Source: Eledone cirrhosa
Taxonomy: Eukaryota
Direction: 5' to 3'
Assembly (NCBI GenBank): GCA_964016885.1
Contig: OZ024740.1
Span: forward strand, 88,536,001-88,600,000
DNA length: 64,000 nucleotides
Position numbers and translations under genes: made by a program. Below, in pieces: positions 1 through 55,082 of the stretch; position 1 is the first letter of the stretch; each line of letters begins with the position of its first letter. Below the pieces are notes generated by a model that did no database searches, was not told the origin of the DNA, and worked only from the letters and a program-made list of their open reading frames with translations.

Positions 1-3000
1 AAAAACTAAAAAAGGATTTTAAGGAGGACGTAGGACCACCCTCTGTCAAACCCATAAACCGCGTCCTACTAAAAAGCTTTCCCCCTCCCCTTCCCCTCCC
101 CAACACAACTCCAAACACCCCAACCCCACCACACACCGACGACCCCACACCACCACAAGACACCCCTTCACCCAACACCCCCGACCCCATGGAAGTCGTG
201 CAACCCGAACCCCGGGAAGCGGAAAGGTAGGTCTCTACACTCTCCTTTGGCTCTGCCGCCCACATGGATGTGTTAAGAGTAGGATGTTTGAATGCACGTG
301 GCCTGGGCTCAACTTGGAAGCAAGCAAAGCTTCTAAATGACCTCAGGTCATGTAGTATAAATGTAATGGTTATCTGTGAGACTCGAATCAGCGTCATGCG
401 GCAGCTGGCCCCCACCTTCGATGACTTTGAGGTGCATGCATCTCTCTGTCAACCTGGAGGTGGGGGTGGGGTTGTCGTGCTGCTGCAAAAACACCTGGGT
501 CTTGCCGTACAGGTTGTGCACTCGGACCCGGAGGGTCGTTTGTTGGTGCTAGACGTTGGCAGTAGTGAAAGTGCGGCCTTGAGACTGGTCGCCGTCTACT
601 CCCCTTTCGGAGCTGAACGGCCCGACTTCTTCCAGCGTTTGGAGACTTTTCTGGGAACGTCGCGTTCCCTGCTTCTAGCGGGGGATTGGAATGACATCCT
701 GGATGCACGTTGGGACTATGCAGGAGCATGTCCTAATAGAGGGGGGTGTAACAGCCTCAAGGGGTTACTCGACCGTTTTAACTTGGTCGATAGATATCGA
801 CTAGATTTTCCAACTGTGCCTACCTGGACTTGGAGAAACCACAGTGGTCAATCTAGATCGTACTTAGATAGATTCTTAGTTAGAAGTAAGGATAGGGACA
901 TATTAAGCTGTCCAGAAATGCGCACGGTTGGCTACACGGATCACAAATTAGTGACCTGCGTGGTCAATCTCGAGAAAACACATAGACAGGGTCCCGGTTA
1001 CTGGAAACTTAATTTGTCTTTACCGGCAAAAGAGACTTACAGAAACCGGATTAGCAGATTAGTTAAGGAGAGGTTGACGGGTGCAATCGTCAACAACCGA
1101 TGGTGGGCATCTCTCAAAAGAGAGATTAGAACAGAATCAATAAGTTATAGCAAGATGTTAGCTGCCAATAGGAATAGAAACGAGAAAGAATTAACAGGTA
1201 AATTAGAAGAGGCAATCAAGAGCGAAGATGTGGCCAGAGTGCTGGCATCGAGGACGGCCTTGAACCAGTTTTTCGATGCAAAGCATGAAGGCTGCGTCAT
1301 TCGAAGTAAAATACGTGCTCTAGGTAATGAGGGGGCCAAAGCCGTTGGATGGGCCCGCGTGACAGAAGCTAAAAGTGGAAATCGATCCACCATCCGGTCG
1401 TTGCAAGACGAAGATGGACGAGTGATCCGGGAGCCTAAGCAGATGTGCGAGGCCTTTCAAAAGCACTTTGCCCGATTGTTCGGGGGAGGCGAGGGTCCGG
1501 GCCGGGGCGTGGATTTCGGTCCATACCTCGACGGCCTGCCGCGTCTCTCGAGCAAAGAGGCAGAGTCCTGCGAGGGACCAATCTCGGCTGATGAGATCGG
1601 AGATGCGCTGAGCCAATGCAGCAGACGCAAATCTCCAGGTCTCGATGGTATACCTTACGAACTTTATTTAGCAATGCCGGTCTTCTTCTCCGAACTCCTC
1701 GAAGCGGTCTACTGCAATTGGCAGCAGAACGGGAGAATTCCTTGTTCTGTAGCCAAGGGCGTAGTCACGCTGGTGAGGAAGGACGAGAACAAGGGGGATA
1801 GTATAAATAATTTTCGGCCCATAACCCTGCTAAACACAGAGTTAAAGATTTTGGCCAAGGTGTTAGCAAAGAGGTTGGCGCTTGTCGTGGGTGGCCTGGT
1901 GGGAGATGCGCAGACATGTGCTATCCCATCCAGGTCCATTCACGATAACCTCCACCTCATGCGATACATCATAGAGAGGGTTGGCAACAAACCCGGCTTC
2001 GGTGGGGCCCTGATCAACTTGGATCAGTCTAAGGCATTCGATAGGGTCGACCATGGTTACCTGGATGCGGTGCTAGCGGCGGCTGGGTTCGGTCCTGTTT
2101 TCAGAGGCTGGATCACTGCCCTACATAGCAACCACATCTGTTCTAGGATCAAGGTGAACGGCTACCTTTCGAAGCCGTTCGAAATCACACGATCCATTCG
2201 ACAGGGGTGCCCTCTCTCCTCCCTTCTGTACGTATTGACTCTCGAGCCTTTACTGAGGAAGTTGGAGTTGTTGCAGGGTATCCCCCTGGAACCAGGATTG
2301 AGCAAAGCGGTGTCGGCCTACGCCGATGACGTAACAGTAATGGTATCAACCGACTCGGAGATCGAGGCGATCGGTACCTTACTGGAGGAGTACGAAAGGT
2401 TGTCAGGAGCGAAACTGAACCGGGAAAAATCCATCGGGCTGCAACTCGGAACGTGGAGAGGCAGACCGATGCCTCCCGATGGTGTCGTCGGACACTGGAC
2501 GGAGGGCCCGGTAAAGTTGCTTGGGGTCTGGTTTGGACCGGACCTCCAGGTGGAAAAGAACTGGAACGAGGTTACGAACAAGGTGTTTGCACTAACCCAG
2601 AAATGGGCCAAGTGTAAGCTGTCCCTAAAAGGCCGGGCGGAGGTGGCGAACATTTACATAGCGTCCGTCACTTACTACCGCCTGACTGTCGTGCCTTGCC
2701 CTAAGGAAACACTCACCACCATGGAACGCATGCTCTTCCAATTTCTTTGGAAGAAGCGTCCTCCTATGGTGAGAAGATCCATCTGCTGCCAACAACCTTC
2801 GAAAGGAGGGCTGGGGATGCCGTGGTTGATGATGCGTAGGCACGCATTAAGGCTACGGCACCTACAGGTATTCCTCACTGGTCAACCGGTGTGGGCTCCG
2901 TTCGTGAAACGAGCCTTTCCGAGACTCGTCTCACTCACCGAGCTACAGTCCTGGGTCAAGCAAAGATCCGGAAAACTGGGAGACTGGCACACTGAGTGTG

Positions 3001-3915
3001 CTCAGGCGCTCAGGGCTCTCTGGCAAGCGGGCCGGGCCATCGGTGGAGAATCCACCTCATCATTCTATAGAGGGCTGGTGGCTAGCAGGGGCGATGACAC
3101 CCTTGGAGAGTCGCTGGACATGGAAGAAGACGAACTGGCCAGCCTGTTCGGTAGGACTTTCGGCCCAGGACCAATGGACAACTTCCAGAAGTCACTGGCC
3201 TGGCAGTGCTACCGAGGGGCTCTACCCGTTCGAGAGAGGCTCTACAGACACGGGCGCCCGGGCAGGGATCCCTCAAAAAAGATTTGCCCTAGATGCGTGC
3301 GTCACGAAGAAACCGTGGCGCACGCATTGGTGCAATGTCCGGGCGTGGCTGATCTGTGGGGCTACGCCGAACAACTGCTGTCGCGGGTGGCGCCGATTAA
3401 ATTGACAGCCGAGTCCGTGATGACAATCAAACCGCCTCCCCTCTTCACAAAGGAAGCAAAGGCGGTTTTTCTGTGCGTAATAGCCATGTTGAAAGAGGTT
3501 GTTTGGTGGACACGATTGAAAGGTCTGAGGTCAGGCAACTTCCTCTCTGGCCATAGTCTGGTCTACTTCTTCCGATATCACTTCGGAAGAAGGATAAGAA
3601 TGGAGAGAGAGGTGCTTGGCCACAGGCAGTTTTATGAAAGGTGGGTGATAGTGGCGAGAATGGCTCGTGTAAATGGGCCTTCTCTGTATACCATCCTGTA
3701 GGTAAAGAAGTAAAGGAGAGGGGAGCACCTTCTCCATGTGCTCCCTGGGCAAAGGATTGCACACTTTTTCGGGGGTGTGTGCAACCCCCATCACGTCCCC
3801 TCCCTTTTGAGGTTATTTTCGATTATTTTCATGTTACACCCTTTTTACTCGATTATATGTAAACTCCCCCTTTGTATTTGTCCCTTCTTTTTATGCCTTT
3901 ATGGTAAATAAAGAA
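1..3915 (+). mobile_element. Tx1-clade non-LTR retrotransposon, copy 1 (5' part outside window; end of ORF1, intact ORF2, 3' UTR)
   Basis: 1-263 is homologous to the ORF1 end of copy 2 (~5720-5976). ORF2 has APE-RT-CCHC. AATAAA at 3907-3912 runs into (ATCT)n at 3916-3939. Confidence 0.92.
264..3701 (+). CDS. LINE ORF2p: APE endonuclease + reverse transcriptase + C-terminal Cys/His finger, uninterrupted 1145 aa
   Basis: Motifs LNARG, GDWN, YLDRF, TDH (APE); SPGLDG, FRPITLLN, LDQSKAFDRV, RQGCPLS, YADD (RT); CPRC..ETVAHALVQC. GYWKLN and CAIPSRSIHDN are typical of Tx1/L1. Confidence 0.96.
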   Translation: MDVLRVGCLNARGLGSTWKQAKLLNDLRSCSINVMVICETRISVMRQLAPTFDDFEVHASLCQPGGGGGVVVLLQKHLGLAVQVVHSDPEGRLLVLDVGSSESAALRLVAVYSPFGAERPDFFQRLETFLGTSRSLLLAGDWNDILDARWDYAGACPNRGGCNSLKGLLDRFNLVDRYRLDFPTVPTWTWRNHSGQSRSYLDRFLVRSKDRDILSCPEMRTVGYTDHKLVTCVVNLEKTHRQGPGYWKLNLSLPAKETYRNRISRLVKERLTGAIVNNRWWASLKREIRTESISYSKMLAANRNRNEKELTGKLEEAIKSEDVARVLASRTALNQFFDAKHEGCVIRSKIRALGNEGAKAVGWARVTEAKSGNRSTIRSLQDEDGRVIREPKQMCEAFQKHFARLFGGGEGPGRGVDFGPYLDGLPRLSSKEAESCEGPISADEIGDALSQCSRRKSPGLDGIPYELYLAMPVFFSELLEAVYCNWQQNGRIPCSVAKGVVTLVRKDENKGDSINNFRPITLLNTELKILAKVLAKRLALVVGGLVGDAQTCAIPSRSIHDNLHLMRYIIERVGNKPGFGGALINLDQSKAFDRVDHGYLDAVLAAAGFGPVFRGWITALHSNHICSRIKVNGYLSKPFEITRSIRQGCPLSSLLYVLTLEPLLRKLELLQGIPLEPGLSKAVSAYADDVTVMVSTDSEIEAIGTLLEEYERLSGAKLNREKSIGLQLGTWRGRPMPPDGVVGHWTEGPVKLLGVWFGPDLQVEKNWNEVTNKVFALTQKWAKCKLSLKGRAEVANIYIASVTYYRLTVVPCPKETLTTMERMLFQFLWKKRPPMVRRSICCQQPSKGGLGMPWLMMRRHALRLRHLQVFLTGQPVWAPFVKRAFPRLVSLTELQSWVKQRSGKLGDWHTECAQALRALWQAGRAIGGESTSSFYRGLVASRGDDTLGESLDMEEDELASLFGRTFGPGPMDNFQKSLAWQCYRGALPVRERLYRHGRPGRDPSKKICPRCVRHEETVAHALVQCPGVADLWGYAEQLLSRVAPIKLTAESVMTIKPPPLFTKEAKAVFLCVIAMLKEVVWWTRLKGLRSGNFLSGHSLVYFFRYHFGRRIRMEREVLGHRQFYERWVIVARMARVNGPSLYTIL

Positions 3916-19746: not shown

Positions 19747-20082
19747 CCCTAAGTATTGAGTACTCTGGAGCGTTATGGTCCATCTGGTTCCTTACTACAA
19801 TTCCTTTGTTATTAGCTCCTATCTCGGTAGTAGAGTACTTTCCGATTCTACCACGCCATATCCCGACTTTTCCACCCAGCTCAAGTTTCTTCACCCGCAC
19901 GATGCGAAAACACAATATCGACTTCTCCACCAAGAACATCCCAGTTCCACCGAGAAAACTTTACCTTCGGATGCTCACACAAAATCGACCTTTTTGCGAA
20001 AAGACTAAGATGGAAAACTTAAGTAGTCCAGAAATAGCCGTCGAAACGGCTTGAGCTATGCCGTCGGGGTCATACTTTTTCC
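19747..20082 (+). mobile_element. Internally deleted PLE: ORF N-terminus fused to the element 3' end
   Basis: From ATG 19902: [25 protein letters not shown]..(fs)[10 protein letters not shown], the PLE N-terminal motif. 20024-20082 matches the 3' end of the PLE at 53933-55084. Flanked by TA-rich microsatellites. Confidence 0.7.
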
Positions 20083-20109
20083 TATATATATATATACATA
20101 TATGTACAT

Positions 20110-21416: not shown

Positions 21417-21467
21417 AGATTCCTGATGATTTCTAAAGAATGAAACAGTTCCAGTCCTGTAGAATCT
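21417..21467 (+). ncRNA. Type I hammerhead motif (P2 right arm)
   Basis: AGATTC CTGATGA tttctaaagaat GAAA CAG ttccagtc CTG TA GAATCT; stems I and III are fully paired. Confidence 0.75.
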
Positions 21468-22870: not shown

Positions 22871-23108
22871 TCGTACTATATATATCTGTATAAATCTCTC
22901 TCTATATATATATATAGTAATAATAATAAAATTGAAGACTAAAATCCAAAGAGGGCTCGATGCGATTCTTTGCTTAAACTTTAATCTGTTATTTTAATAA
23001 ATATATATATATATATATATATATATTATGAATTTATTTGCTTTGACATATGTTTCTATGTCTATTATAAATTATCTACATATGCTGACTACAATATATA
23101 TTGTTCAA

Positions 23109-23682: not shown

Positions 23683-23697
<15 letters not shown>
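23255..23697 (-). mobile_element. Diverged P2-related module with degenerate hammerhead core
   Basis: Shares ggtaaccacagtaagt, aaggtactcaatac..gcagagtataaa and agaactgtttc..aatcatcag with 19027-19150. TA flanks. Confidence 0.6.
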
Positions 23698-23760
<63 letters not shown>

Positions 23761-23765
<5 letters not shown>

Positions 23766-25734
23766 TAACAGATTAAAGTTTAAGCAAAGAATCGCTGCTT
23801 TCACCCTTAACGGGATATTCTGAAACTAACAAAGTCAATCTGTAAACGAAGAAGTGGATATTTCAAATAACGTTGCAAGCGGAGGAAGACAGGAAGACGA
23901 TACTTTGGTTCGTAGAAACGTTCCCTGGCAAAGAACGGGAAAAAACGAATATATACGTCATTAATAGGAGCGATGAAATACAATTACGCGCAAAGACAGA
24001 ACCGCGTTTATGGTATAAAAGAAGTCGTAGACTAATATTCTATTAGGTGGTTCATAGAGACGTTCTCTGGCAATTAACGAAAAAAAACGAAGATAATACG
24101 TCATATGTGGAACGTGGAGAACAATTGCACGCAAAGACAAAACCACGTAAATGGTAAGCAGAAGTCGTAGACTAAAATTCCAACTAGGAAACCGAATGAA
24201 TCTCCGCTTCAGAGTTAAGAATAAAGTAAATAAAATACAATACAGAGGTAATAGAAATTAAATAAATACAGACACGCATGCAAATACGTACATACACAAG
24301 CATACGCGAAAACACTTACCATAGGTATACAAAACCACGCACATATAAATATGTGTGTGTGTGCGTGCGTGTATACAAATAAATAAATAATTAAATAAAC
24401 GTATATAAATAAATAAATACGTATTTAACAAGCGACCACACATACCTACATGTAAATACACAAATGTTCCGAGACGTAAGTCAACCAAAACATGAAGTAC
24501 TTATATACACACACCCTACATACGTACGAACCTGCATACTCACACAGACGCAAAACTCCCGTATACACATAACCAAACCATATGTACCAGAATATATAAA
24601 AAATTATACGCCATAACATATACAATCAAATATACATACGAGAAAGTATACGTACCTTCACAAAACATACAGGTAATATATACTTACCTATGCAAAAATA
24701 AGTAATGGTATAAACAAAACATATACTTAGCTACCACATCAATACGTTAAATATCCACTTATAGATCGTACTATCCGTTAGGGTATAACGTGGGGGCTGT
24801 AATACAGGAAAGTTTTGTGCAATTTATGTTTACAAGCCGAAATTGCCTCAGATTTTTTGTTTAAGATGTCGTCTGTGGCGTAGAGTATTTCCAGGGCCTC
24901 AGCGGCGCAGAGGTCACATGGTCTTTTATTTCCGTTATACGATCTAGCCCTAGCTAGGATCTCCCAGTGTAACTTATATTGGGTGTGGTTGTCTTTTAGA
25001 CTCTAGATATAAGCTGAAAGTGACGTCATATTCTTTCTTAGAGGGTAACGAAAAGAATGTGTATGCATGTAAAGACGCTGCTTGAAACTATTGGCGGTTA
25101 ACCCTATGTAGGCCCTACGGGACGTGGGTCTTTCAACCTTACATTTGTAGACAATGTTACTAGAGAGGAATTTCCCGGATAGGGGGCAATCAACCCGATT
25201 CCCACAATTACAGTTAGTACTAACTACAGGGTTGCACGTGTTCCTACGGCTAGGTAGTTTAGCTAAATTTGAAGCTGTGATGTTATGTGCAAGGTTAGGA
25301 GTCGTAGAGTAACACATTTTAATAGTATTTCTATTAAACATTTTACTATATTTATGTGTAGGGGGAAAATGCTTCGTAATAAGGGAAATAAAGATCTTAG
25401 CTAATGGTGTGGCCACCTCCATATTATATGGTGGGTTATATTAACAAATGCGACGGGATCTATTTCTTCTAGGTCTATTTTCGTACTCTGTATATGCTAC
25501 CTTATCGACAAATCCACTCCGAGCAAGAGCTTCATTGTAATAAGTGGAATGGTCGTTGAAAATATGCTCGTTAGTAGATAGACGGGTAAGCCTCAACGAA
25601 ACGTTTCTTACCAGGTTCTTGGTTATGCTGGCAGGAGGGTTGGAATGCTTACTTATGTAATTAAGCGTACCATTCGGCTTTATATACGGGTAATACAACC
25701 CATTCGATAAATTGAGGGTAACGTCGAGGTAATT
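23761..25734 (-). mobile_element. Penelope-like element, 5'-truncated: RT thumb + GIY-YIG endonuclease + long 3' UTR, between (TA)n tracts
   Basis: YLDVTLNLSNGLYYPYIKP...YNPPY...KHFPPTHKYSKMFNRNTIK...CNCGNRVDCPL..NIVYKC..AYIGLTANSFKQRLYMH...CDLC. Tandem duplication with ~140-bp period at 23918-24188. Confidence 0.9.
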
Positions 25735-25750
25735 ATATATATATATATAG

Positions 25751-26640
25751 GGAAAAAATGAAATTTCCTTTCTCACTCTTAGTACGGCTGATACTTAAAT
25801 ATAAGTATGTATAGTACATACACATATGTATACAGACGTTCAGTAGTATGTATATAATTATACATCGTTGCCCTTTTGTTCAACACTGACAAAGGAACGA
25901 TGAACTAGTTTCTAAATTCTTAGCTGTCATTAGCACCGTATACCTTCCTGTCAATTGATTGAACGTTTAAAAGTATACACTTTCCTTATGCATAGTAACG
26001 GCTTAGCAGCCTAATTTGCATATCGAGTGAGTTAGTCGGCCGGGCGTACCGAAAACGTTAAATGGAAAAAATGAAATTTCATTTCTCACTCATAGTACCG
26101 CTGATACTTAAATATAAGTATGTATACGTACATACAAATATGTATACAGACGTACAGTAGTATGTATATAATTACATACATGCACACATATATATATATA
26201 TATATATGTACGTATGGGTTACCGAACATTTATTATAATGTTCGGTTTGTTTGTAAACAAACAGTCCGAATTAAGCCGTACATGTTTAGGAACCATCGTT
26301 GCCATTTTGTTCAACACTGACTAAGGAACGATGAACTAGTTTCTAGCACCGTATACCTTCCTGTAAATCGATTGAACGTTTAAAAGTATACACTTTCCTT
26401 ATGCATATTAACGGCTGAGCAGCCTAATTTGCATATGGAATGAGTTAGTCGGCCGGGCGTACCGAAAACGAGAAATGGAAAAAATGAAATTTCATTTCTC
26501 ACTCTTAGTACGGCTGATACTTAAATATAAGCATGTATACGTACATACATATATGTATACCGACGTACAGCAGTATGCATATACATACATACATACATGC
26601 ACACATATATATGTACGTATGGGTTTACCGAACATTTATT
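25751..26640. repeat. Tandem direct repeat, ~2.4 units (starts ~25751, 26064, 26477)
   Basis: ggaaaaaatgaaatttc..tctcactc..agtac..ctgatacttaaatataag occurs three times with colinear downstream sequence. Confidence 0.85.
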
Positions 26641-38640: not shown

Positions 38641-38750
38641 GGGGATTTCTTTCTTCGTTTCTGTGCCTTTCCTTTCTTCTATCCTACGCCATTTTCAAAT
38701 GGCGTAGGATAGAAGAAAGGAAAGGCACAGAAACGAAGAAAGAAATCCCC

Positions 38751-48798: not shown

Positions 48799-51700
48799 GG
48801 GTATGACATTAAACTACATCCAGTGGCTGGCTCCAGTTCGGGAGTTCAGGAGATGTGGGGAATGTGGAGTTACCCCTTAGTTGTCATGACTCCCAGGTCT
48901 GCCCTGGCCCGGGGTGGTAGTACCTGTTAGGGCTCCATTTATGGGTTAAATAACTACCTTATTCGAGTGGCGCCGGTAAGGTATTGTCAGCCATTGAAAA
49001 GAAATATGGAGAGTCGATCTAACATCACTAGGGATAGAGGCCCTAATTACACTGTCAAGGAGCAGCCTGGTCGTTATGACTCTGCTGGCTTAGAGCCACA
49101 GAGAGGGCCAGTGGATGATGGATCAGCTGTCTCTGAGACAAATATAAAGTATGCAGTTTTGTCCTGCAGAAGAGCCATCAAAATGGGCACTTTGAATGTG
49201 AGGACTATTCGGACGCTGGAGAAGAGAGAGGAGTTGGGACATCTGTTCGAGGAGAGTGGTATACAGATACTTGCGATCCAAGAACACAGGATTCTACACG
49301 ATTAGCCCGTGAGGAGTGTGATGATCGGGAGGAAGAGCCAGCTCATCACTACATCGGCAGTGAAGAACACAACAAATGCTGCAGTAGGAGGAGTGGGTTT
49401 TGTGTTCAGTGCAAAAACCAATCTGTTGGTGAGGGAAATAATGCCTATCTCCCCGCGAGTGTTGAGGGTGACCTTCAATGGAAACCCAAGACTGACAGTC
49501 ATCTCAGCCTATAGTCCAACCGAGGGGAACAGTGATGTGAATGCGGAAGAGTTCCATGAGGAGGTGTGTAGAGATGTCAACACCACTCAGGCACACAATA
49601 TCCTGCTTGTTTTGGGGGACTTCAATGCACATCTGAGTAAGGAGGGCAGTGAAGATCCTTGCTGGTACTTCCATAACAACACCAACCGAAATGGAAGACT
49701 ACTGAGAGACACCCTGCTGGAGGCGAACTTGATGGCGACCAACCTAAGGTTTAGGAAGAATCTGGGGAAGATGTGAACCTACATCTCAGATATGCACCTG
49801 TCCAAGTCCCAGATTGATTTCATTCTGGTGAGGAAAAAGTGGCGGAATAGTGTTCTGAACACGGAACCATACAGCTATTTCAGTACACTGGGTAGTGACC
49901 ACCGGCTTGATATGAGTGAGGTCCGCGTGAGCTTAAGAAAGAGCAAGGCTCAGCCCCGGAGAACAATCTATGACTGGGGAGCTTTCAAGGAAGATGATAA
50001 GCTACAGGAGAGGTTCACAGTGGAAGTGAGAAACAGGTTTAGTGCTCTGTGTGGAGAGTTAGAGGAGAGAGAGATTGGATGTACTGAGGAGACTGTGACG
50101 AGGAGGTACGGGCACTTCACCAATGCAGTGGCGGAAGCAAGTGAAACCCTGGTGCCGAGGAAAAAGAACAAAGGGAAGCACGTCAGCTCTGCAAACCCAA
50201 AAGTGTGTGCAGCCAGAGAACACCTGAAAGCTGCCAGGGACCAATTCTATGCTGATCCTACGGAGGAGAGGATGGAGACTGTGGAGGTGATGAGGGAAGA
50301 GCTCTGTACCGCTTACACTGAGATCAGAGAGGAGGCACTGATAGAGAAGATCAGAAGTGTGGAGAGAGCGGTTGACAGATCTGGATGTAAGGAGAGCTGG
50401 ATGATCATCAACGAGATCACAGGGAGGAAGAGAAGGTGTTCGAGTCAGATCCAGGGAACGGGGCCCGAGGATAGGAAGAGGAAATGGCTAGACCATTTTA
50501 GGACCCTACTAGGAGAGCCACCTCCCACAGCCCAGAGCACTGGGGAGATCAGGCGGCTGTTTGAGGAACTGGATGTTGAGACAGAGCCCTTCACCAGAGA
50601 GGAGCTTCAGAGAGCCAAGAAGAAGATCAAGGAGGGCAAGGCTCATGGAGAAGATGGAGTGGCATCAGAGGTGATGAAGAGGTGTGATTTTGATGATATC
50701 ATCCTGGGGTTCTGTAATGGGGCACTGGAGAAAGGAGTTGCCCCAAATCAGTGGAGGATCAGTAACATCGTCCCAGTGCCAAAGAAGGGAGATCTCTCTA
50801 ACACCAACAACTACCGGGGGTTCTCACTGACGTCACTTGTGGCAAAGACCCTCAACAGGATGATTCTTAACAGGATCCAGCCTGAGATGGAGAATAAGCT
50901 CAGGGACAACCAGAACGGCTTCAGAGTGGGTAGATCAACCACCAGTCACATCCTGATGCTGAGGAGGATATTAGAGGGAGCTAGAGCAAAGTGCCTTCCT
51001 GCGGTAATGGTTTTCATTGACTTTAGGAAGGCCTTTGATTCTGTGGACCGTTACTGCCTGATGAAGATCTTACAGGCTTATGGAATCACCAAGAAGATAG
51101 TGGACCTGATATCACTGCTCTACACCAACACCAAAGCCCAAGTCATTACACCTGATGGGATGACAGAGTGCTTTGAGATACTGGCTGGAGTGCTCCAGGG
51201 AGATACATTGGCTGCCTACCTTTTTATCATCGTAGTGGACTATTGTATGCGCCTTGCACTGGAGAAACACCAGGACTCTGGCTTTACTGTAGCACCGGCT
51301 CAGAGCAGGAGAGTTAGGGCGAAAAAGGTAACGGATGCTGAGTTTACCGACGACATAGATTTGGTGACAAATACAGTGAAGGAGGCAGAGGATTTGATGC
51401 GGGAGGTTGAGACTGTGTCGATGAGTGTGGGGCTGAGAATGAATGAGACTAAAACAAAATATCTGGTGGAGAATGTTGAGAAGCCAGAGGGGATCACTAA
51501 TGTAGGCGGGAAGCCGCTGGAATTGGTTGAGGACTTCCTGTATTTGGGAGCAAAGATTGGGAATACGGAGGATGATGTGGTTGAGAGGAAGAGCAAGGCC
51601 TGGGCGGCGTGCCACAGCTTGAGATCGGTGTGGAAGTCGGACCTTCGTAGAGACCTGAAAATCCGCCTCTTCATTGCTGTAGTGGAGTATGTGCTGCTGT

Positions 51701-52100
51701 ATGGGTCTGAGACTTGGACACTGACCAAGAAACTCACTCAGATGGAGGATGGGTGCTACACAAGAATGCTGAGGATGGCTCTGAACATTAATGAGTATAC
51801 ACTGAGGATGAAAAACTCAGAGCTGTATGGGAGCATCCCAAAAGTCAGCTCAAAAGTGACACAGAGGAGACTGAGGTTAGCTGGACATGCTCACCGACAT
51901 CCAAAAGTGACATTGCACTCAGTACTCCTTTGGGAGCCCCTACATGGACACACTAGAAGAGGAAGACAAGGTTAACGTATGTTGATGCCCTAAGGACAGA
52001 CACTGGTCTGTTGGAGATGCAGGACATGGCAGCGATAATGACGGACAGAGACCGCTGGAGAGAACTCGTCCATGGATCTCGGGAATTTTACCCGCCTTAG
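48794..52100 (+). mobile_element. Near full-length single-ORF RTE-group LINE inserted in (TA)n
   Basis: Short 5' UTR and an APE-RT ORF. The stop at 52098-52100 is directly followed by (TA)n, and (TA)n also lies upstream. Confidence 0.9.
49006..52100 (+). pseudogene. RTE-type APE-RT ORF with two in-frame stops (49303, 49774) and a frameshift near 51970
   Basis: GTLNVRT, IQEHR, GDFNAH, QIDFIL, SDH; PKKGD..NYRG, QNGFR, IDFRKAFDSV, GVLQGDTL, EFTDD, FLYLG, LLYGSETW, RRLRLAGH. Confidence 0.92.
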
Positions 52101-53936: not shown

Positions 53937-55082
53937 ATGTTTAACCCCGACGGCAGAGCTCAAGTCGTTTCGATGGCTATTTCTGGACTAAATTAGAATA
54001 GCCGGACTTTCAAGGCGCAATTCCTTATATGGGAAGATTATAGTGTGCAAAAGGATTAGTCACAATTTCTTGTAAGCACAATTAAATCTTTCATGGCAGA
54101 ACAATGAGGGAGTTGGTGGAGCCGGTCAAGCGTTGAAAGTGAATTCTATATAGCAAATTCTGAGGAGTGTGTTTGAAATTAGGTTAGTTAGGAAGCAGGC
54201 GAAAAAGGATACTGAGAGTGGGACGTTATAGAAATGGTTAATAAATTGAGATTAAATGATAATAAATAAAAAAAATAAAAATTAATAAAATTAAATAGTA
54301 AAAATTATTAAAAAATCTCTAGAGTCTAAAGCAGTTGCTATATTTTTAGCTGGTATTGCGTTTTCGGCCAATGCTATATATAATTTACTGGGGTGGGGGT
54401 ACTGAGTCTACAGAAGCCCGATGGGCTGTCTTGGGGTAGGCGAAGGTGGAAAAAGGAAAAGGAAGAGGGTAGGGAGTGGAAGGATGTGATAAGACGAGAT
54501 AAAGGGAAGAAGAGAAGAAAAAGAAAAAGAAAAGAAATACAACTACCTATGTATGCTGGTGTTTCCCCTGTGTTGTTCGGCAAGTGGGGAAAAGAAGGAT
54601 GTTGCAGCCATTATCTACCCCCCCCCGGGTCATGAGGGGGTTGAGGGCGAGGAAAGTCCTATGCAATCAGTGTTTACATGCAGTTACAAGTTCGTCTTTT
54701 TTGTTTAGGAGTTGGTCCTTCGTAAACAGCATTTTTAATGTTTCCTCCGAGCATAAGTTACACAGACGGCGTCCTCCCGTGTAGGAGTTACCCATGGACA
54801 GTAAGCTCCAAGTAAGGTGGTATGTTATTTTGTTATCTTGGAGGTTCCAGCTGTGGCCCGAAAGTGTAGTGGCATGTCGCCGGGCCGGGTTTCGGTGGAG
54901 CCGGGTCTTGAAGTCGGAAGCACTTAATGCTATATAGGCTTAGCCGGAGGTTTCCGTCCTCACGTTACATTGGTAGATCACGTTACGTTCTCGGCATCTG
55001 TTGTTGAGGGGGCACGTAGATCTATTAGGGCAGTTACACCTCCTTATTGGCTCCCCACTAATGTCTAGTTTTTTTTCCTCCA

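Follow-up and report, generated by a model that had tools for sequence, protein, structure and literature searches.

The 64,000-nt stretch of DNA analysed here (hereafter, the window) comes from an animal genome rich in microsatellites, and carries, on its minus strand, a hammerhead-shaped RNA motif which, judging from its letters and surroundings, is the end of a 5'-truncated and decayed Hydra-type Penelope-like element (PLE). The remnant of the open reading frame (ORF) of this element (24778-25733, minus strand), truncated at its 5' end, encodes the thumb of a reverse transcriptase (RT), a CxCX5C linker (CNCGNRVDC), and a C-terminal endonuclease of the GIY-YIG type, with in-frame stops at 25443-25441 and 25005-25003. 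Three near-full-length homologs share 35-40% identity with the remnant over about 310 residues, and a YIGLT motif that follows its RT thumb lines up with the full-length homologs; no GIY-YIG match was returned by Pfam for the ORF fragment. The CxxC and CxH pairs around the conserved E and N are also present (CDLC..E..N..CKH), and this end, together with the CxCX5C linker, defines the Hydra clade of the PLEs (PMC8557442). The RT core is missing from the window copy. The N-terminal RWK/DKT region is cut off in this copy, and was found in homologs that are only about 40% identical (DKT in P0002, P0003, P0016, and P0017; RWK in P0016).

The element lies between two runs of (TA)n, a (TA)8 tract at the 5' truncation point (25734-25749) and the (TA)37.5 microsatellite into which it was inserted (23686-23760). 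Its 3' terminus (23761-23776, minus strand) adjoins the latter, and loose ends fall at 23756-23761 in all four of the public sequencing runs described below. A second copy of the 3' end, 35 nt long and identical at 35/35 positions, is found on the plus strand (22962-22996), where it ends alike, followed by (TA)n; it covers the 3' arm of stem III, the UH, and the 3' arm of stem I of the motif, not the core. Both copies are thus inserted into (TA)n, the usual target of the clade, and the element would fit the Hydra clade by its protein motifs and target, not by the clade's "canonical hammerhead" trait. Directly upstream of the truncated element (25751-26615), a unit of about 330 nt occurs twice, the two copies being 88% identical, and a third time in part.

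Between the ORF remnant and the motif lies a long 3' non-coding region (23828-24777, minus strand), which includes a 135-nt duplication, 79% identical (24180-24048 and 24040-23906). The number of these units differs between copies, as indicated by the read joints, and homology runs on beyond 24252 in one run. The distance from the stop to the core is about 960 nt, far above the 100-494 nt that separate the end of the endonuclease from the core in related loci (n=50), and we therefore infer the linkage of ORF and motif in one element from their shared strand, the flanking (TA)n runs, and the lack of any other candidate. The original prediction had placed the motif at the 3' end of a coding PLE; its terminal position is upheld, and the element is coding by origin only, being 5'-truncated and bearing two in-frame stops. 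Other mobile sequences are also found in the window, including further Hydra-type ORF remnants on the minus strand (64000-63623 and 32796-31004), with at least four such coding fragments in all, a non-LTR element with endonuclease and RT in an open frame of 1156 codons (plus strand, 231-3698), and a second, interrupted non-LTR element (plus strand, 48931-51972).

Read on the minus strand from 23827 to 23777, the motif is a type I hammerhead-shaped junction of stems I, II, and III, with the cut predicted after 23782, and its letters, coordinates, and type I order agree with those first proposed. Stem I pairs 23827-23823 with 23781-23777, and is followed by the core slot, C3 to A9 (23822-23816), with A4 at 23821 and U8 at 23817. 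Stem II (region 23803-23815) pairs 23814-23812 with 23806-23804, and consists of three C-G pairs, a 5-nt loop, and, at the base, a U10.1·U11.1 mismatch, not the four base pairs originally drawn. After the GAAA (23802-23799), stem III (23783-23799), which had been drawn as short, has five pairs (A15.1-U16.1, G-C, C-G, A-U, and G·U) and a 7-nt loop, and G15.2-C16.2 replaces the C-G pair of the clade; the UH is at 23783-23782. The predicted fold also contains a possible extension of stem I (23768-23843, minus strand), a 9-bp helix of 23843-23835 with 23776-23768 past a 7-nt bulge (23834-23828), to which the family polymorphisms at 23830 and 23834 would map. A helix as long as this is found by the same test in 7 of 50 related motifs, and the distal helix was dropped as strong evidence on account of these matching flanks.

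The defining parts of a hammerhead are present in unequal measure. Three helices are arranged in type I order around a core, and G12-A13-A14, A15.1-U16.1, and H17 are all present, with no variant row among the 40 of 113 family rows listed. The CUGANGA box is not found, its place being taken by CAGAAGA in the family and CAGAAUA in the window copy; the C3-G8 pair is found in the family (G8 at 92-100%), not in the window copy. The 10.1-11.1 pair, which is usually G-C, is absent, with U·U in its stead. For lack of the CUGANGA box, the motif is not classed here as a canonical type I Hydra hammerhead, from which it would nonetheless descend.

Detection of the motif depends on the tool. A relaxed descriptor (stem I of at least 5 bp, stems II and III of at least 3 bp, and at most two core mismatches), with thresholds chosen after the motif had been seen, matched three times in the real 64-kb window, whereas 20 block shuffles averaged 0.25 matches per 64 kb. 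In the 1-kb 3' region of the element, the motif is the only real match, and 0/1000 shuffles of that region gave one. A stricter descriptor that demanded the 10.1-11.1 pair found no match, and the folding energy of the 51-mer is no better than that of shuffled sequences (z -0.33). Rfam returned no hammerhead at E<=10 in 23750-23900, and none in the whole window among the 150 of 220 matches listed. A custom model (R1), built from 30 related canonical motifs, aligned the motif in register, at 6.1 bits and E 0.63 in 1 kb, the sequence scored being the window copy with its two core changes; the motif was not among the 17 matches of R1 at E<=5 in the window.

The letters of the family were obtained from public data. 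Four of 19 candidate runs (X1, X4, X7, and X17) were aligned to 23755-24255 at 80% likeness, yielding 15,299, 47, and 46 contigs and 17,980 reads, and the family is abundant, given that so many contigs and reads align, the RAD data giving no reliable copy number. Exact DNA matches to the family end were absent from metagenome contigs and from viral contigs, and the protein matched no viral loci. The evidence on variants is that of the 40 rows listed of 113. At 23817, G8 makes up 98% of the depth in X1, 100% in X4 and in X7, and 92% in X17 (4549/4934 reads), so U8 is a letter of the window copy or of a small subset, and the family retains C3-G8. This U8 is one of 11 near-fixed differences between the window copy and the family in 495 nt, and the chance of one of the 11 landing in the 7-nt core is 0.15. 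The loss of the C3-G8 pair, which the original prediction had ascribed to the motif, does not hold for the family, and CAGAAUA was rejected as the family core, since G8 dominates in all four runs.

Position 4 is different. No row for 23821 appears among the 40 of 113 listed, and the three T>A places of X4 are all located away from it. Two contigs span the core and carry A4, contig 10 of X4 (23800-23913) and contig 17 of X7 (23814-23886), all five differences of the former and all six of the latter lying elsewhere. A majority change at 23821 in X17, at about 4500-fold depth, would outrank a row of 484 reads that is listed. A4 is the majority letter of the family, and the family core is CAGAAGA (U4A), found in runs under three organism codes and four studies; X1, X7, or X17 may contain a minority with U4. 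The earlier suggestion that the variant is more than the decay of a canonical core is borne out at this position, and the consensus is non-canonical here, with position 8 returning to G. C16.2 is also a family letter, as both G>C places in X1, X4, and X17 map elsewhere, and the second window copy (22962-22996) agrees.

Relatives of the element set A4 apart. The descriptor was run over 92 related loci, and gave 56 motifs in 56 loci, all distinct, a count that includes two rows with an altered position 3, one of them probably spurious. All 56 carry U4; C15.2-G16.2 is found in 55 of them, and U·U at 10.1-11.1 in 24. The other 36 of the 92 loci gave no descriptor match; many end shortly after the ORF, and several show a CUGA core by eye. 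The pattern CAGAAGA..GAAAG was matched four times in the related loci, each time inside an ORF or on the opposite strand. Thirty aligned related motifs show strong covariation of the stems, and the 15.2-16.2 pair is invariant, C-G in 30/30. Thirteen of the contigs with Hydra-type fragments, several with canonical hammerheads, are filed as bacterial genomes (L080-L092), and are probably animal host DNA in bacterial assemblies.

The published Hydra-clade hammerheads (Craig et al. 2021, PMC8557442) give a similar picture, with the canonical hammerhead described as universal in the clade and, by our count by eye, CUGANGA in all 26 Hydra rows of File S2 (U4 in 26/26). The present motif resembles them in its type I order, its position near the 3' end, a stem I of 4-7 bp, a short stem II, U10.1·U11.1 (14/26), U17 (10/26), the (TA)n target, and the protein motifs. 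It differs in A4 and G15.2-C16.2, both found in 0/26 there, in its 7-nt loop 3 (1-3 nt there), and in a much longer 3' region. The U10.1·U11.1 mismatch has been described as the one best tolerated (PMC3088659). The layout thus appears ordinary for the Hydra clade, A4 and G15.2-C16.2 being the two unusual features. For the latter, the letters suggest that a G-C pair was inserted before the common CAG..UUG stem; the stem III change requires two substitutions or two insertions, and keeps the pairing. Listings of the open literature, the Craig 2021 supplement, and supplement file 2 of Cervera 2014 yielded no natural PLE hammerhead with U4A. A search of the Perreault 2011 supplements gave no natural U4A either, a weak negative in that the positive control matched only the primer table.

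The window itself contains a counterpart. Two copies of a canonical Hydra-type hammerhead (plus strand, 21417-21467, and minus strand, 19156-19106) have a CUGAUGA core, U·U, a 3-bp stem II, and a long loop 3, and score 34.1 and 31.4 bits with R1. This family (+21423 and -19150) offers a natural control for the variant, and a partial look-alike of it is found at -23679. The notion of a lineage-specific core variant is too wide in the light of this second family, in which U·U and a 3-bp stem II recur beside a canonical core, and a host-wide variant was rejected on the same ground. U4A is specific to its family rather than lineage-wide, given U4 in 56/56 related motifs and the canonical second family in the same window.

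A second PLE subfamily with CAGAA, cited in the original prediction as a parallel, gives no support. Its two 3' ends before (TA)n (plus strand, 20015-20085, and minus strand, 54015-53940) have GAAA, stem III, and a GUC triplet, with the core slot decayed or missing. In this supposed subfamily (+20029 and -53985), only 6 nt separate CAGAAATA from GAAA, too few for the hairpin of stem II, and it was rejected as support for the variant. In the -53985 copy, the 6 nt are predicted to pair with an upstream arm, forming the 3' side of a hairpin; the +20029 copy lacks this pairing. The predicted fold points to a long stem II, and to a core slot near 54013 that has decayed. A Hydra-type endonuclease remnant (55038-54670) is found about 700 nt upstream of the -53985 copy. 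The window also holds canonical minimal hammerheads of another family (+18795, +38756, and -38635), the last two inverted around a perfect hairpin (38655-38736), and canonical-core hammerheads with a long stem II (+21778, -21702, and -61972), of which the first two form an inverted pair.

Within the family, the 28 polymorphic sites found in 495 nt all lie outside the 55 paired or core positions (Fisher p=0.033, from the 40 of 113 rows listed), and the stems, which might have proved variable across copies, appear to be conserved. The signal is modest, being one of conservation and not of covariation, and does not tell ribozyme function apart from the recognition of the 3' end. No covariation was seen in the family stems, for which the 40 of 113 rows listed hold no variant, and minor stem variants are possible. 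The depth of X17, at 0.99 of its maximum over 23789-23805, is down to 0.44 over 23823-23839, and strand-switch joints cluster at 23790-23827, inside the hammerhead, which together suggest that many copies of the family are truncated or inverted within the motif, the drop in depth being partly due to clipped divergent reads. Most loose ends lie beyond the predicted cut, and the inserted 3' ends derive from RNA that was uncut at that site. This does not discriminate between the readings considered below, because published Hydra elements also extend beyond their own cut site (PMC8557442).

Several published constraints bear on the catalytic capacity of such a core. Within the uridine turn, U4 touches the phosphate of A6-N7 (PMC3088659) and, in a comprehensively mutated type III hammerhead stabilised by tertiary contacts, all changes in the CUGA turn gave low activity, except the C3/G8 swap (PMC9901934). 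A viroid hammerhead with a natural U4C cleaves far more slowly in vitro and still supports infectivity, and peripheral contacts have been proposed to offset variants of the core (PMC3088659). In the Poseidon element PAc of Anolis, catalytic mutants had no effect on insertion in vitro, and cleavage needed the protein (PMC11167929); Naiad elements are present in high copy numbers although they lack canonical hammerheads (PMC8557442).

Folding predictions place the hammerhead fold of the motif 2.1 kcal/mol above the predicted minimum, and about 2 above it with either core. The predicted pairing probability of proximal stem I is 0.07, and 0.11 with a canonical core. With A4, an inactive pairing of core and GAAA rises from 0.01 to 0.33 in these predictions. 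By the NUH rule, CUU is a poor cleavage triplet. PMC1636495 offered nothing on this triplet. Weak cleavage of the U4A motif would be predicted from the published mutagenesis.

Given the mutagenesis, the viroid U4C, the CUU triplet, the folding, and the PAc data, the reading favoured here, at about even confidence, is that the motif would be a true homologue of the Hydra hammerhead, with weak or protein-dependent cleavage and a fold that has been retained. The source element would have gained U4A and the new G-C pair beside A15.1-U16.1, losing the contact of the uridine turn and turning the triplet into CUU. Cleavage of the bare RNA would be weak, or would occur only with the protein of the element. 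Amplification could nonetheless have continued, as target-primed reverse transcription needs no cleavage, and selection may still act on the three-way fold near the 3' end for a structural or protein-binding role.

A less probable alternative, and still one to be taken seriously, is that the motif is a dead relic, in which U4A and the stem III change descend from a single source copy, no cleavage takes place at all, and the shape survives through recency or through the need of the RT for the terminal sequence. The two departures at positions that are invariant in the relatives point in this direction, as does the abundance of Naiad without canonical hammerheads (PMC8557442). The intact remainder of the core tells little here, since 28 polymorphic sites in 495 nt lead to an expectation of fewer than one in the core. 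The stem III change, however, preserves pairing, the other ten conserved core bases are canonical in the majority letters (of the rows listed), and the polymorphism avoids paired positions (p=0.033), all of which argue against a relic.

That the motif is a working natural variant, cleaving at useful rates because contacts between loop 2 and the bulged, extended stem I, or the protein of the element, offset U4A, appears unlikely. The general base G12, as well as G8, the C3-G8 pair, and A15.1-U16.1, are retained in the family, and the variant is common to runs under three organism codes, which would suit activity; the CUU triplet is a poor one, A4 favours the predicted inactive pairing, and the extended helix is not unusual in comparison with related flanks, which would not. 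Peripheral contacts, as proposed for other variants, and the persistence of natural U4C in a viroid (PMC3088659) are also consistent with this reading, but all U4 changes were low even in the tertiary-stabilised type III hammerhead (PMC9901934).

More doubtful again is a protein-gated ribozyme switch, in which U4A would be active, with A4 pairing to U11.1-GAAA or to loop 3 until the protein of the element refolds the RNA. Four nt of loop 3 are complementary to A4-G5-A6-A7, a match with a chance of about 0.05. If such a switch were real, it would escape all searches based on CUGANGA.

The copy-specific decay of a canonical CUGANGA hammerhead is highly improbable, being true for G8 (one of the 11 near-fixed differences, with a chance of 0.15 that one falls in the core) and in keeping with the two stops of the ORF, but false for U4, where no run shows a majority change at 23821 and two core-spanning contigs carry A4. 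A chance look-alike in the AT-rich 3' region, for which the lack of significance with Rfam or the custom model and the 0.25 descriptor matches per shuffled 64 kb would leave room, is scarcely credible against 0/1000 local shuffles, a position at most 70 nt from the end of the element, where Hydra hammerheads sit, the U·U signature of the clade, and a family letter at 23817 that brings the core nearer to the canonical one.

Variation at the core has precedents among other hammerheads. The U3-A8 hammerheads of PLEs (Cervera and De la Pena 2014, PMC4209133) are also a case of a core variant found throughout a PLE family, and low activity in vitro has been reported for animal PLE motifs in the same source. 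U3-A8 is a compensatory pair, whereas U4A is an unpaired change in the uridine turn, and, unlike the motifs of that study, the present one has a full stem III, so dimerisation is not required. The natural U4C hammerhead (Perreault et al. 2011, PMC3088659) shares the changed position 4 and the tolerated U10.1·U11.1, but is a sequence variant of a viroid, in contrast with a U4A that is fixed in a high-copy family of animal retroelements. The Poseidon element PAc (Frangieh et al. 2024, PMC11167929) is likewise a PLE with a hammerhead in its terminal repeat and short terminal "tail" copies; its core is canonical, unlike the present one, and its cleavage is protein-dependent and dispensable for insertion in vitro.

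The purpose of the PLE hammerheads is debated, with the processing of tandem transcripts, a structural role, and parasitism all under consideration. A family with a changed uridine turn, beside a canonical family with the same layout in the same genome, represents a natural test pair for this question. If the variant cleaves, position 4 would be more tolerant than mutagenesis suggests, and descriptors based on CUGANGA would overlook real ribozymes. If it does not, a successful family would be able to do without catalysis in vivo, and the fold would have some other job.
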